Virus record (IMG/VR): IMGVR_UViG_2778261169_000001
Coordinates: 1-16,674 of that record
Direction: 5' to 3' (one strand)
Source of the DNA: a virus
Lineage: Duplodnaviria; Heunggongvirae; Uroviricota; Caudoviricetes
Length of the DNA stretch: 16,674 nucleotides
Shown piece by piece: positions 1,744-8,325 of the stretch. The notes under the pieces were generated by a model. The model saw nothing but the letters and a program-made list of their open reading frames with translations, did not search any database and had not been told where the DNA came from. The position numbers and the translations under genes are program-made. Every line of letters starts with the position of its first letter. The first letter of the stretch is position 1.

Positions 1744-3428
1744 TATGCGAGTCTCACGATATAGTTAAATGCGATGTTTTTGATGGTGTTTTCTGCATTA
1801 CCCGACGCGGCGATCGTAATGGTGTGACCGTGTGCGCCAATAGCAACGGAGTGCGAGTGTGCGCCAATCCCGACATTATGATTGTGGGCACCAATCGCCA
1901 CGGTATGCGCGTGATTACCTGCAGTTGATGTTGTTTTCGTTCCCGTCGCTATTTCGTTACCGTCGGCGGCCTGTCCCCCGGCCTGATCTCCCCGGTGTAC
2001 GGTAAAAGTGTGCGCATGGTTGCCGGTTGCATTAGTGGTTTTTGTCCCGTAGTCAAAGGTCGTGGTGGTTTTCGTTCCGTGGTCAAAAGCACTGGTGGTT
2101 TTCGTCCCTAAATCGGTGCTCGATGCGCTGGCACCGTGGGCGTGCGATTTAATGCCGTCCTGCTCCTGAGACAAAATAGCGCGCCCACTTGCGGGTTTAC
2201 CTTTGATTGTCCAGCCCCGCATATCAGGAATAACACCCGATGGGTACACCACAGCAAGCAGCGGATACGCGGCTTTATCAAAAGTTTGTCCCTGCATGAC
2301 GGCATAGCCAGCAGGAACACTGTCAGACGGCCACGCAACGGGAGCGCCTACCGGAAAAACATCATCAGGCGTCCACGGTGTCCATGCGCCTGTTGAATAC
2401 TGACTGCGCGAGTAGCTCCGGGAGCTGTTATAAACCCGGTATACCTGAGTCACTCCGGCATTTTTATAAATGACCAGCGTCCCGGCGTTATTTTCAGGGT
2501 AATGTCTGGCGGCTGAGGTATTAGAATTCGCTGGCTGAAAGTAAATACCCGGCGTTTTAAGGGTGTCTAAATCCTCCGTTACCAGCCCAATAGCCTGGTC
2601 GTCGAAAATATCCTGCGAGGTAACACTGGTGTCAGCATTCAGGGAGTGTCCGTTAATTTTGCGCGAGGAAGGAACGCGGCCATCAGCATTATCATTCGCC
2701 GCTTTCACCGCTTTTGGCGTTGCGGCGAGCGTCTCAGACACGCTGTCGATGGCGCTACTGAGCTGAACAATCCCTTTCTGCGCCGTGGTCGCATCCTGAG
2801 CCGAGTATTTACCTTTCGCAAGGTCATACGCCGCCTTAACCGCTTTCGGTGTCGCGGCGAGCGCCTCAGACGTGCTGTCGGTCGCACTGCTTAACTGCGT
2901 GAACCCTTTTTCTTTCAGCGTGGCGTCAGGATGGCGGCGGGACTGCTCATGCTCTGCGAGTTTGTCGTCGACATAATCCTGCGTCGCCATCACCAGCGTG
3001 GTATCGATGGACAACTCGACCGTGTCGATATCACTCACCATGATCACCATACGCAGCGTCTGCGCACGACCTGATCCTTCCGCCAGCTCGGGTTTGTAGC
3101 TTTCGGCCATATTGCCGACCGCAATCAGCGTGCCGGTGTCATCGTAAAGCCCCATTTCACGCAGCCAGAAACCGCCGGTCTCCGGGGGGATCACCAGCTC
3201 CGCCACGACATAATTTTTATGTTTTTTGTCCTGGCTGATTTTGTTCAGGACATGACGCCAGACCTCATTGACGAGTTTTGTCTGGCTGGCGTCCGGTTCG
3301 GGCAGTTTTCCGCCGCCGTCCCCGACGGCCATCACAGCAAAATTGACTTTCTTCCCGTTCGGGAGCGTCGCCGCCGCCAGTTTTTCCGCACCGGCTCGGG
3401 TGATAACGGTTTTATATTTCACTGTCAT
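1743..3428 (-). CDS. H: Tail fibre protein (P2 gpH-like N-terminus, divergent repeat-rich C-terminus)
   Basis: 561-aa ORF. N-terminal ~200 aa ([27 protein letters not shown]..., [25 protein letters not shown]) and the duplicated LSSA[15 protein letters not shown] module match P2 H as I recall it. The C-terminus has a tail-collar-like segment ([38 protein letters not shown]...DMRGW) followed by GTKTT and GAH-x-H-x repeats. Confidence 0.9.
1826..1912 (-). repeat. Three imperfect tandem 27-bp repeats encoding (V/A)-(A/G)-IGAH-x-H-x units at the tail fibre C-terminus
   Basis: Plus-strand units gtgtgcgccaatagcaacggagtgcga / gtgtgcgccaatcccgacattatgatt / gtgggcaccaatcgccacggtatgcgc, translating on the minus strand to AIGAHNHNV / GIGAHSHSV / AIGAHGHTI. 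Coordinates approximate. Confidence 0.7.
2700..2915 (-). repeat. Two ~75-bp direct repeats (about 80% identical by eye, ~135-140 bp apart) inside the tail fibre gene
   Basis: caccgcttttggcgttgcggcgagcgtctcagacacgctgtcgatggcgctactgagctgaacaatccctttctg (from ~2706) versus aaccgctttcggtgtcgcggcgagcgcctcagacgtgctgtcggtcgcactgcttaactgcgtgaaccctttttc (from ~2838). They encode the duplicated [26 protein letters not shown] / [26 protein letters not shown] modules. Confidence 0.8.
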
Positions 3429-4876: not shown

Positions 4877-5227
4877 TTAACTCAGTGGAAGGGTGATAGA
4901 AAAAGGCTGGCCTGATGCCGAACGCGTGCCGGTCATATCGACGTACATCGCGCCGTCATCCTCTCCGCGTTCAACGGTGATGGTCGACAAACTGACGCGC
5001 GGTTCCCACCTCTGGATCGCGGAGTAGCACGCGGCCATAATCTGCAGACGCAGCGCCGGGGTCTGCGGCTGGTCAATCAGTGCAGACAACAGCGAGCCAT
5101 ATTCGCGGCGCATGACGCGCGAGCCCACTGGCGTGACCAGAATGTCGCGCACGCTTTGCCTGATGTGCTCAACTTCAGAAATACTGAGGCCGGTCTGGCT
5201 GTTCATTCCCAGATAACGCACCGTCAT
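4877..5227 (-). CDS. W: Baseplate protein W (P2 gpW-like, GPW/gp25 family)
   Basis: Start trimmed from the 171-aa track ORF to the internal ATG at 5227-5225 (MTVRYLGMNSQTGLSISEVEHIRQSVRDIL...), giving ~116 aa as for P2 W. This ATG overlaps the V stop codon (ATGA). Confidence 0.8.
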   Translation of the reverse strand: MTVRYLGMNSQTGLSISEVEHIRQSVRDILVTPVGSRVMRREYGSLLSALIDQPQTPALRLQIMAACYSAIQRWEPRVSLSTITVERGEDDGAMYVDMTGTRSASGQPFSITLPLS

Positions 5228-5865
5228 TTGACCCCCTTCGTCCAGTTTCCGCCCGGCTCCACGCCACCATGATCGTGGGCATCGACCTGCACGCCGTTTG
5301 AGGTAAATTTCCCTTCGGTGTGCTCGATGTTCCCCGACATCGTCCCGCCTTTTTTCACCTCGAGCGTGCCGGTGATGAGCTTGTTGGTACACACCACCTC
5401 GGGAGTATCGAGGGTAATGCGGGTTTCGGCTTTCACTAGCACCACCGGCACGATGGCGGTAATGGACTCCGACGCGGTAACGTCGGCGGTTTTAATACCG
5501 GATACGGTGAGCGCCCCGTTTTCGGGTTCGTACTCGATAACCGCCCCGTCAGGAAAAGTGACGTGAAACGCATCGGACGAGGCCGACGGCGCAGGATGGT
5601 CATCAGAGAAAATGCCGGGCAGCACAAAGGCTGTGTCCAGCTCGCCACCAATGGCAAGAATGAGCACCTGCTCGCCAACAGAAGGAGCCCACCACACCCG
5701 CGAGCGGCCGGCGCGGCAGGTCAGCCAGTTAAGCCAGGTGGTTTGCATCCCGCCGGTCTGTACACGACAAAGCCCCTCGACGGGGTCGACGTCGGTCACA
5801 ATGCCGGTGCGGATAAGGTTGCGGATCGCCCGAGCGATTTCCTGTAAAGAATTTAAATTATTCAT
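5224..5865 (-). CDS. V: Baseplate spike/assembly protein V (P2 gpV-like)
   Basis: Start set at ATG 5865-5863 (MNNLNSLQEIARAIRNLIRTGIVTDVD...), which aligns with the P2 V N-terminus and gives ~213 aa (P2 V is 211). The longer track ORF from 5964 would add 33 residues drawn from the AT-rich island. Confidence 0.85.
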   Translation of the reverse strand: MNNLNSLQEIARAIRNLIRTGIVTDVDPVEGLCRVQTGGMQTTWLNWLTCRAGRSRVWWAPSVGEQVLILAIGGELDTAFVLPGIFSDDHPAPSASSDAFHVTFPDGAVIEYEPENGALTVSGIKTADVTASESITAIVPVVLVKAETRITLDTPEVVCTNKLITGTLEVKKGGTMSGNIEHTEGKFTSNGVQVDAHDHGGVEPGGNWTKGVK

Positions 5866-6128
5866 GTGGAAAGGATGCCGACTGGAAAGGCTAGTGGCAA
5901 TCAAGTGGAGTTTTATGGGAGATGAAACAACAATTATCAGCTTTAAAATATCAGTATAATTCATCCCATTAGATTAATGAGAGCCACATAAAGGATTTAT
6001 CAAATAGCAAAACTTAGAAATGAAATAAATCTCATAGACATTTCATCATGATATAAAATTATTTTCCGAACCCTTACCAAAGCAGATATGGGGCTAAATT
6101 ATCAAACAGCCCCACGAATATTAAAACA

Positions 6129-6707
6129 TTATTTTCCACAAACCATATTATCTATCGCAGCCATATAGGATACAAACAGATCTACATAACCACTTACGTC
6201 AGTGAGACTAATATCATTTGCATTGTCGTTATGATGAATAATGTTATTTCTCTTTACAACCACTGCATTCACAACATCCTTATTCGCATTAAATTCCGCC
6301 GAATTCAAAAGATTAACACCCAAATAAGAAAATGCCTTAATCGTCTTGTAAGGATTACCAGACAGGCTATCCGACACCTCACTTTTCTCAACCTTTAAAT
6401 CAGCATCTATATATTTCAACTCCTTATCTTTAACATCTTTTTTGACTCGCCAAAGCAAAAAATTGTGTGGCAAGCAGGCTGCTTTGAGCCTGCGATTGAT
6501 GGTATCGCAGTGCCATGTTGCAACCTCAGTCAAATACGACTCTAAATAAGTGCAGAGTGTAATAAGATACGATTTAACAAAAAAATTAATGTTCTTATTG
6601 AAGAATTCATTTTCCTCAAGGATAGCCTGTTGCTCCGTCTCCTTAATAATTTCTTTTAAGGATAAAAATAATGAACGATATCCATCATAGTATTCAGTAT
6701 TTTCCAT
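6129..6707 (-). CDS. Hypothetical protein with C-terminal R-x4-H motif (possible HEPN-type RNase), second gene of the island pair
   Basis: 192 aa from ATG 6707-6705 (the track starts 3 nt upstream at a TTG). AAGGAAG lies 6 nt upstream; the start overlaps the upstream gene's 3' end by 14 nt. Motif VVKRNNIIHHND at residues 151-162 is encoded at ~6231-6251. AT-rich codon usage. Confidence 0.6.
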   Translation of the reverse strand: MENTEYYDGYRSLFLSLKEIIKETEQQAILEENEFFNKNINFFVKSYLITLCTYLESYLTEVATWHCDTINRRLKAACLPHNFLLWRVKKDVKDKELKYIDADLKVEKSEVSDSLSGNPYKTIKAFSYLGVNLLNSAEFNANKDVVNAVVVKRNNIIHHNDNANDISLTDVSGYVDLFVSYMAAIDNMVCGK

Positions 6708-7743
6708 CAATAACTTCCTTAAGAAGTGCCACCCAACTAGCCCTACGCTTCATCACCGAACTCTTATTCTGTAGCCCACCTGATAAAGTTTTTTTGAACT
6801 CAGCACTTGAACAAAGAGTAAACCAAGCATTCCGTATTTGTTCGGACTTTTCATTTACAATATCATCATTTAACTTGCCAATTGTAGGCATTAAAATGTC
6901 ATAATGAACTAACCCTTTACGTTTTCTCCTAACTGTAGGGTTTGTAAATACATCTTCACCAAATATTTTTTCACACTTAGATAATGATGTTTTGAATCTC
7001 TCCCTCATAATATTCAGTTCATCATCTTTTAAGTCTGAAAATTTTTCCATATGATCATCCAAGAATTCTTTCAAGGAGCTATCAAAGTAATCAAAAAAGT
7101 TATCTTCATAAAATGCAAAAAAACGCAAAACTTGTTCGTCTGGCTCACGACTATCTCTTTTTACTGTAGTTGTTTCCGCCAAACCAAAATTTTTAATGGC
7201 ATCAATATTACCTAACTCTTCTAATAATTCATCAAACCCTCCCGGATATAACGCATGTCTTATTTCTTGATCAGAAAGTTTAACTGCCCCCTGATTGAGT
7301 CTAGAAAATATCTCTCTTATTAATTTTTTGGGATTTTCTTTTCTTAGAACAATGCATCTTATTGTTGTCGACTCTAACTCTGAACGTAGAGATCCTAATT
7401 CAGAAAACTTTTTCCCTTCAAGCTCTTTAAATGTAGTCATTCCCTCCAAAGCGAACTCGTCATCAAAAAATTTCTGTATTGTGGTTAATCGCTGAACACC
7501 ATCAATTACAATATGATTGCCGCTATCATCTTCTGCAAAGTAACAAGATGGAAGAGGAATACGCATTAAACAAGATTCAATGAATTTTGAAGATCGCAGC
7601 CATCCGTCCTGATCCCATTTGTACTTTCTTTGAAAGTCTGGATTCAGTTTTAGTTTGATGGGATTGGACTTCATCCTAGAACATAAAGTCTCAAATGGAT
7701 AATCTATGGGGAATAAATTCAATGTTTTATCATCGTTAGACAT
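6694..7743 (-). CDS. DUF262 (ParB-like/GmrSD N-terminal domain) protein, no recognisable nuclease domain
   Basis: 349 aa; ATG 7743-7741 with AAGGA 7 nt upstream. DUF262 hallmarks: NPDFQRKYKW (aa 35-44), IVIDGVQRLTT (DGQQR-type motif, aa 78-88, DNA ~7489-7503) and IFSRLNQGAVKLSDQEIRHALY (F-x-R-x-N...G...L...E, aa 145-166). The C-terminal ~170 aa is helical with no HNH/DUF1524-like His-Me motif that I can see. Confidence 0.75.
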   Translation of the reverse strand: MSNDDKTLNLFPIDYPFETLCSRMKSNPIKLKLNPDFQRKYKWDQDGWLRSSKFIESCLMRIPLPSCYFAEDDSGNHIVIDGVQRLTTIQKFFDDEFALEGMTTFKELEGKKFSELGSLRSELESTTIRCIVLRKENPKKLIREIFSRLNQGAVKLSDQEIRHALYPGGFDELLEELGNIDAIKNFGLAETTTVKRDSREPDEQVLRFFAFYEDNFFDYFDSSLKEFLDDHMEKFSDLKDDELNIMRERFKTSLSKCEKIFGEDVFTNPTVRRKRKGLVHYDILMPTIGKLNDDIVNEKSEQIRNAWFTLCSSAEFKKTLSGGLQNKSSVMKRRASWVALLKEVIDGKY

Positions 7744-7800
7744 GCTTCAATCCTTGTAAGTAAAAGCTTAAAAAATCAACGAGGTAGCAGACAACAACAA

Positions 7801-7829
7801 TATTTACCATTTTTTATGATTAAGGTCAA
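7801..7829 (-). promoter_or_regulatory. Candidate sigma70 promoter for the island genes
   Basis: On the minus strand: TTGACC (7829-7824), 17-nt spacer, TGgTAAATA extended -10 (7809-7801). Lies in the 135-bp S-to-island intergenic region, about 55 nt upstream of the DUF262 ATG. Confidence 0.3.
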
Positions 7830-7878
7830 AAGGTCGGTAAGCTAGGATTCGTCTTATGAGACTTGCAACCGTAAATAG

Positions 7879-8325
7879 TCAATTTAGATGTTCAATAACC
7901 AATTTTTCAATCAACAAATTGTCTCCAAAGTCAACACCAAGCAACTGCCGTTCTGGGTATTGCACGTCCTGAGCATGTGGGTTTGGCCGGTCTTTAAGTC
8001 CGAGCTGATGAATCTGAGCAATACGTTGCACCTTGCCGGTAAACTCGACCACCGCTGCATCATCGCGGCCTCTGGCTTTCATGTAGCGGTTCGTTCGCAA
8101 CTTCTGAAACATCGTCCGCTTAATACGCCCTTTCTTCGCTCTGAGCGGCTGGCGTTTTCGCGCCTGATACGGCGTGCCATCAGGCGCTTTTTGCTGTTTG
8201 ATGCGTTGCTGTTGCGATCTGCGCAGTTGCTTTGCTATTTCAGCGGCCAGCTTACGCCGACCCGCCGGTGATATTGCCGCAATCAACCCCGCAAGTTTGT
8301 CATCAAAAGGCTTAAATTCATTCAT
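7879..8325 (-). CDS. S: Tail completion protein S (P2 gpS-like)
   Basis: 148-aa ORF (P2 S is 150 aa) directly downstream of R with an 8-nt overlap; ATG at 8325-8323; basic N-terminal half typical of gpS. Confidence 0.85.
   Translation of the reverse strand: MNEFKPFDDKLAGLIAAISPAGRRKLAAEIAKQLRRSQQQRIKQQKAPDGTPYQARKRQPLRAKKGRIKRTMFQKLRTNRYMKARGRDDAAVVEFTGKVQRIAQIHQLGLKDRPNPHAQDVQYPERQLLGVDFGDNLLIEKLVIEHLN

Follow-up and report, generated by a model that had tools for sequence, protein, structure and literature searches.

A mobile DUF262–HEPN cassette between two late operons of a 186-like Escherichia coli prophage probably carries its own promoter

Is a two-gene island that interrupts the late genes of an Escherichia coli prophage expressed by the host while the phage is repressed, or is it transcribed only when late transcripts reach it during lytic growth? 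The locus studied here lies in a 16,674-nt stretch of DNA (hereafter the window), which represents the late region of a 186/PSP3-like prophage (P2 family, Peduoviridae). Its genes are arranged on the minus strand in the order lysis genes, R, S, a DUF262/GmrSD_N gene, a RiboL-PSP HEPN gene, V, W, J, I, H and G, and its backbone is ∼73% identical to phages 186, PSP3 and their relatives. The island and its flanks are carried at ≥99% identity (almost all 100%) by 30 of 5426 complete E. coli genomes, always in the chromosome, and many of the carriers are strains labelled 167 or NDM. The GC content over positions ∼5900–7900 is 0.32–0.37, against 0.53–0.62 in both flanks, so that the composition of the island is distinct from that of the backbone. 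Only 69 nt separate the homologues of S and V in phage 186; in the window, backbone homology ends at the S stop codon (7881–7879) and, by comparison with sister prophages, restarts at 5933. The island is inserted between genes that are adjacent in related phages. The features discussed below are listed in Table 1; an Rfam search of 5700–8100 gave only a sub-threshold chance match.

Table 1. Features of the island and its flanks in window coordinates, listed in the direction of transcription
Feature	Position	Strand	Remarks
Gene R	8869–8318	−	
Gene S (virion morphogenesis/tail completion; last gene of the upstream late operon)	7879–8325	−	Pfam Phage_tail_S, E 6.8e-36; RefSeq annotation of an identical prophage
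Alternative promoter-like site TTGAAA-N18-TAAATT, in the last codons (3′ end) of S	7881–7910	−	10.9 bits, top score in the window
AT-rich island	∼7878–5934	−	
Interval from S stop to conserved block, 47 nt	7832–7878	−	Fold −7 kcal/mol, z −0.28
Conserved 33-nt promoter-like block TTTTGACCTTAATCATAAAAAATGGTAAATATT	7799–7831	−	Holds the −35 element, the TG and three overlapping −10 candidates
−35 element TTGACC	7829–7824	−	5/6 consensus matches
17-nt spacer TTAATCATAAAAAATGG	between 7824 and 7806	−	
Extended −10 TG	7809–7808	−	G at 7807, hexamer from 7806
−10 candidate TAAATA	7806–7801	−	17-nt spacer; 3/6 consensus matches, no T at −7
−10 candidate AAATAT	7805–7800	−	18-nt spacer
−10 candidate AATATT	7804–7799	−	19-nt spacer
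Predicted transcription start	∼7792–7795	−	Deduced from the −10 registers
Short unstructured leader	7744–7791	−	Fold −4.1 kcal/mol, z +1.56
Shine–Dalgarno AAGGA	7755–7751	−	
DUF262/GmrSD_N (ParB-like NTPase) gene, 349 aa	6694–7743	−	Pfam PF03235, E 4.1e-23
HEPN (RiboL-PSP) gene, 192 aa	6129–6707	−	Pfam PF18735, E 1e-17; RefSeq coordinates
Terminator-like hairpin GUGGGGCUG-loop-UAGCCCCAU after the HEPN stop	6088–6115	−	9-bp GC-rich stem, weak U tract
Backbone restart and V-operon late promoter region, TTGTTGTTTCAT...GGCATCCTTTCCAC	5866–5933	−	Sister-prophage homology from TTGTTGT
Gene V (baseplate spike; opens the next late operon)	5224–5865	−	Pfam Phage_base_V and Phage_spike; RefSeq start

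With a 14-nt overlap between the HEPN gene and the DUF262 stop codon, the pair constitutes an operon, and this overlap suggests that their translation is coupled. The HEPN product is likely an RNase. The cargo was compared with two known defence systems. PD-T4-2 consists of a DUF262 protein and a HEPN protein of family PF18735 (PMC10952713; PMC9519451, Table S1); it protected E. coli K-12 when cloned under its native promoter with ≤193 bp of flanking DNA (Vassallo et al. 2022, PMC9519451), and its deletion in the native strain ECOR65 restored plating of T4 (PMC9519451). The cassette resembles PD-T4-2 in its two-gene operon, a DUF262 gene followed by a gene whose product matches PF18735 (RiboL-PSP HEPN), and its first protein matches the PADLOC model PD-T4-2_A almost end to end (E 9.5e-43, model positions 45–354 of 363). 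It differs in that this protein scores better against Menshen NsnA (6.6e-80) and in that the second protein is matched by no PADLOC model, even at E 10. PD-T4-2 is related to the cassette only distantly, but it shows by analogy that uninfected cells express a system of DUF262 plus HEPN architecture. Menshen (NsnABC) consists of NsnA followed by the ABC-ATPase NsnB and the effector NsnC (PMC12065111). The S–V interval contains just two genes, of which the second encodes a HEPN protein; we rejected an assignment to Menshen because the NsnB and NsnC genes are absent. In one of the 30 carriers (E. coli 5CRE51, L047), ISKpn26 (IS5 family) interrupts the DUF262 gene at about codon 22 (window 7675–7679), which makes this strain a natural cassette knockout.

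The gap from the S stop codon to the DUF262 ATG (7743) spans exactly 135 nt (7744–7878) and contains, on the coding (minus) strand, TTGACC and TAAATA separated by 17 nt that end in TGG, the motif that a preliminary description of this DNA had reported. That description had further called the elements a near-consensus −35 and an extended −10, which holds for the −35 hexamer (5/6, placed at 17 nt, within the usual 16–18 nt) and for the TG at −15/−14, one base 5′ of the −10 hexamer. It does not hold for the hexamer itself, because TAAATA, read in the TGn register, matches the consensus at three of six positions and does not combine A at −11 with T at −7. T at −7 is a highly conserved position of the −10 element, and the 3/6 match without it is why the site is missing from the list returned by a consensus scan. 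The site therefore resembles extended −10 sigma70 promoters in having (i) TG one base upstream of a hexamer with T at −12 and A at −11, (ii) a 5/6 −35 element and (iii) 17-nt spacing, but differs from them in that TAAAnn lacks the −7 T in all 11 homologues described below. Textbook extended −10 promoters keep the −7 T and usually have a poor −35. The start listed in Table 1 was predicted by applying the rule of 6–8 nt after the −10 element to the sequence. Two other readings were rejected on inspection of the sequence: a sigma54 promoter at TGGTAAATATTGT, for which both the GG/GC spacing and the conservation fail, and a promoter on the opposite strand of the block, where no pair of hexamers occurs at a usable spacing.

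Judged on this sequence by itself, the motif does not exceed what chance would give. The consensus scan found 11 promoter sites in the window, with 12.2 expected. In a position-weight scan (Harley–Reynolds-type frequencies, penalties on spacer length and a bonus for TG) the motif scored 8.9 bits and ranked 12th in the window, most of the better sites also lying within the AT-rich island. Its score was reached by 26% of 3000 dinucleotide-preserving shuffles of the 135-nt gap (one strand), and 45 of 200 shuffled windows contained one or more copies of the pattern TTGAC-N15-TGNTAAA, which was defined post hoc. These figures, together with the missing −7 T and the lack of a recognizable terminator between S and the island, are what one would expect if the motif were a chance look-alike in AT-rich DNA and the island were transcribed only by lytic read-through from the O...R–S operon, silent in the lysogen. 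Only when further copies of the cassette are compared does the motif rise above chance. Between 5866 and 7878, seven promoter-like sites of at least 8.8 bits lie on the antisense strand and two on the coding strand; such an antisense excess is typical of AT-rich foreign DNA, in which matches of this kind are cheap.

The comparison set consisted of DUF262 homologues at 83–94% protein identity, together with the contigs that carry them. Scans of encoding contigs, metagenomes and viruses supplied the close copies; a contig scan of genomes gave distant relatives only. More distant homologues (55–77% protein identity; L005–L010 and L024–L031) had upstream regions that could not be aligned and shared no motif, and were uninformative; a protein search of the phage collection found homologues of ≤34% identity only, which gave no help on the promoter. 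The HEPN gene directly follows the DUF262 gene in every copy and overlaps its stop codon in all but L038, in which the two genes are separated by 56 nt. The pair occurs in at least seven unrelated upstream contexts: the S–V slot (the window and, in a diverged P2-like phage hereafter called the L022 group, L022, L036 and L037); an HP1-like tail-fibre cluster, where the cassette is preceded by 946 nt free of genes and then by a gene on the opposite strand (L011, L012); portal and terminase fragments (L013); the A/portal (tin–old) hotspot of a Pantoea P2-like prophage (L014, L015); an integrase fragment (L017, L018), a HicAB-like pair (L023) or a serine recombinase (L030), each of them on the opposite strand; a primase and a glycoside hydrolase (L038); and others (L039, L040).

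A 33-nt block, TTTTGAC...TGnTAAAnnnT, is present in 11 of 12 lineages, with the consensus TTTTGA...t...CAT.a.AA.tg.taAA...T over the 11 copies. Alignments across contexts show similarity from the ATG up to TTTTGAC and nothing shared further upstream. The mean cross-context pairwise identity is 0.72 in the block and 0.69 in the Shine–Dalgarno block (CAAGGA), compared with 0.31–0.37 in the rest of the leader, 0.27 in the 33–40 nt upstream of the block and 0.40–0.42 at fourfold-degenerate sites of the DUF262 gene; the block exceeds the fourfold sites in 50 of 50 cross-context pairs. Even between the window and L022, which occupy the same slot, the block is 0.91 identical, the fourfold sites 0.68 and the upstream sequence 0.53; the interval between the S stop codon and the block is common to the window and the L022 group only, at ∼53% identity. 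TTGA is invariant; 8 of 11 copies retain TTGAC in full, and all 11 have TGn next to TAAA, including L011, where a 1-nt insertion in the spacer shifts both together. In 9 of the 11 homologues the block is the best or second-best sigma70-like site within 200 nt upstream. The one lineage without the 33-nt block is that of L041–L043 (84% protein identity), whose upstream region is entirely different; its promoter appears to have been replaced or lost. These three copies adjoin a lambda-type integrase and excisionase, with gene starts at 3001, 419 and 485, respectively.

We interpret the block, from these alignments, as the 5′ limit of a mobile cassette and as a sequence under purifying selection. 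In four copies (L011, L017, L023 and L030) the upstream neighbour lies on the opposite strand and the block is the sole shared upstream sequence; read-through from that neighbour cannot express the pair, which argues that it needs a promoter of its own. The chance look-alike with lytic read-through is therefore very improbable: it would leave unexplained a block identity of 0.72 against 0.40 at neutral sites, the coincidence of the block with the homology boundary in at least seven unrelated contexts and the four contexts without a co-oriented upstream gene. A defence system expressed only late in the lytic cycle of its own phage would also seem to bring little benefit.

The opposite end of the cassette is marked as well. 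A GC-rich hairpin lies 10–50 nt after the HEPN stop in every copy with available downstream sequence (the contig of L023 ends 14 nt after the stop), and it is followed by canonical T runs in L011, L013 and L030. In the window, the 76-nt stretch containing this hairpin folds at −17.3 kcal/mol with a z of only −1.65, so that the fold is not exceptional.

Which part of the block acts as the −10 element is less clear. Read in the TGn register, all 11 copies have A, G or C at −7 and none has T, which leaves both the −10 register and the strength of the promoter uncertain. The alternative AAnnnT register (7804–7799 in the window) has an invariant A at −11 and T at −7, and requires a 19-nt spacer. 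Two points remain awkward for a plain sigma70 promoter, namely that a −7 T missing in all homologues would be unusual and that the invariant CAT in the spacer would not be accounted for. Both are among the observations that would be expected if the block were mainly an operator (e.g. for autoregulation by the DUF262 protein) or a recombination or boundary sequence, with the promoter elsewhere or overlapping: TGnTAAA with variable −8 and −7 positions is unlike the usual conservation of a −10 element, the block coincides with the homology breakpoint, and L013 contains a perfect ATCAT-N5-ATGAT dyad. This dyad, however, is imperfect in most copies, the invariant positions fit a −35 element (TTGA) and either TG/T−12/A−11 or A−11/T−7 at promoter spacing, and no other shared upstream sequence could serve as the promoter. 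We thus regard a mainly operator or boundary role as unlikely, while an operator that overlaps the promoter would be compatible with a self-contained promoter unit. Invariant TGnTAAA without a −7 T, combined with the invariant spacer CAT, suggests that the block may also hold an operator. A non-canonical or regulated promoter–operator, for example one set by DUF262 autorepression or by infection, is a speculative and rather unlikely variant; if true, it would keep the amount of a HEPN RNase that is potentially toxic under control, and the block would be a portable regulatory unit that moves along with the cassette.

A stronger-looking site lies nearby. TTGAAA-N18-TAAATT, inside the 3′ end of S and 52 nt upstream of the conserved block, has the highest score in the window (10.9 against 8.9 bits) and a T at −7, and the L022 group retains it as TTGAAA-N18-TACATT. 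It could be a second island promoter, or simply AT-rich coding sequence. That it is the main promoter of the island seems quite unlikely, because its conservation is confounded by its position in a coding sequence and because it is absent from all copies outside the S–V slot, which keep the block at 7831–7799. Both sites could nevertheless be active.

We then considered whether the promoter candidate could belong to the late transcription programme of the phage. The preliminary description had placed the island inside the late operon, and this proved wrong: the cassette lies between the end of the O...R–S operon and the late promoter of the V operon. In the P2 record the corresponding order is S, a putative O-operon terminator, orf30 (antisense), the pV activator-binding site and V. 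In the window, TGTTGT (5932–5927) is located 67 nt before the V ATG; the distance is 68 nt in P2, whose annotated pV activator-binding site includes this motif. The late-promoter dyad TGT-N12-ACA is absent from both intergenic regions, the S–DUF262 gap included. As the annotated P2 pV site is itself not an exact N12 fit, we located the V late promoter by homology and distance. In P2 and 186, the activator dyad is centred ∼55 nt upstream of the start and is conserved among late promoters. The block resembles the Ogr-dependent late promoters of P2 and the B-dependent ones of 186 in lying among the late genes of a P2-family phage, but differs from them in having a good −35 element and no conserved sequence upstream of it: the gap contains no dyad and the sequences upstream of the −35 are unrelated among copies (0.27). 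The late-promoter-like element proper (TTGTTGT..., 5933–5866) lies downstream of the island. With nothing conserved upstream of the −35 and no activator dyad, the promoter is predicted to need no late activator from the phage and to work in the lysogen, where host RNA polymerase should transcribe the pair.

The island occupies the same position as P2 orf30, after S and before the pV activator-binding site. In P2 a putative terminator directly follows S and orf30 is antisense, whereas the cargo here is co-oriented with the late genes and folding of the 47 nt between S and the block revealed no terminator. Late read-through into the cassette is therefore likely, alongside autonomous transcription; late transcripts that end at S in P2 would probably continue into the cassette here.

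The S–V junction holds other cargo as well. Sister E. coli prophages have S and V genes 85–90% identical to those of the window, carry unrelated cargo (sense in L044; antisense in L045 and L046) and share homology with the window only from TTGTTGTTTCAT (5933) to V. Further cargo is found in this slot in Enterobacter phage ENT4 and Klebsiella phage ST147-VIM1phi7.1. The cargo loci are L044 917–2647, L045 944–2106, L046 923–3097, L003 1126–2457, L004 1092–2703 and L019 1369–2308; the cargo proteins are of 328, 237, 543, 354 and 347 aa, plus P2 orf30, in either orientation. That the cargo of sister prophages and of P2 can point either way suggests that genes in this slot are generally self-expressed, and that the S–V junction behaves as a third cargo hotspot of the P2 family. 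The other two are tin/old between A and Q, and Z/fun in the tail genes. Two defence-hotspot papers (PMC9122126, PMC9519451) centre on the A/Q and Z/fun loci, and PMC13586616 mentions hotspots within tail genes in general terms only; the S–V junction receives little attention in these papers. The cassette also occurs in one of the established loci, as a Pantoea agglomerans P2-like prophage carries it together with the promoter block in the A/portal (tin–old) hotspot (L014, 5001–6624), which suggests that the unit moves between hotspots within one phage family.

Taken together, the evidence favours a self-contained, sigma70-driven moron that acts in the lysogen as a PD-T4-2-like system, a reading to which we assign a probability of roughly 70%. 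The term moron denotes an autonomous promoter–gene–terminator unit flanked by conserved genes of the phage (a concept of Hendrix/Juhala; review by Cumby et al. 2012, cited through PMC9122126). The island agrees with this in lying between genes that are adjacent in 186 and in having a distinct composition, a promoter-like block of its own and a terminator-like hairpin, and its cargo would benefit the lysogen rather than virion production. The putative cassette of block, leader, two genes and hairpin thus has a textbook moron layout. It differs from known morons in nothing essential; for the island, promoter activity and lysogenic expression are what we infer. According to this model, host E-sigma70 would start at ∼7792–7795, transcribe both genes and stop, perhaps incompletely, at the 3′ hairpin, giving modest constitutive transcription by host RNA polymerase in the repressed lysogen, where the DUF262–HEPN pair would provide PD-T4-2-like protection against phages. 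In lytic growth, its expression would probably be raised further by late transcripts that run through S. The weak −10 element suggests low constitutive expression, a level that would fit a HEPN nuclease with potential toxicity. In E. coli, H-NS typically binds foreign DNA that is rich in AT, and it could silence the island promoter.

The autonomous sigma70 promoter proposed in the preliminary description is thus well supported on comparative grounds, by the conserved block at the 5′ edge and the copies with opposite-strand neighbours, while the register and strength of its −10 element stay uncertain. The cassette is probably switched on in the dormant prophage. The block provides a concrete promoter candidate for an uncharacterised PD-T4-2-like cassette in prophages of clinically relevant E. 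coli. Furthermore, in Escherichia, Pantoea and metagenomes the cassette appears to move as a complete expression unit between hotspots of prophages and other mobile contexts, and the S–V (orf30) slot of 186-like prophages is documented here as a site for cargo. The arrangement, a defence moron that brings its own promoter, is well known, and the established picture of morons and defence hotspots is confirmed rather than extended.

Two minor observations concern the V operon. First, GGCATCCTTTCCAC directly abuts the V ATG (5866–5933, minus strand) and has no obvious Shine–Dalgarno sequence, and the P2 record places the transcription start of the V operon on the V start codon itself. This hints that the V mRNA may be leaderless or nearly so in this phage family. 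Second, in E. coli 2024CK-00535 and strain 148 (L048) an IS903B copy lies directly before the V start codon, with the window sequence 5866–5874 present on both sides of the element. It separates V from its late promoter, and these prophages are therefore probably defective.
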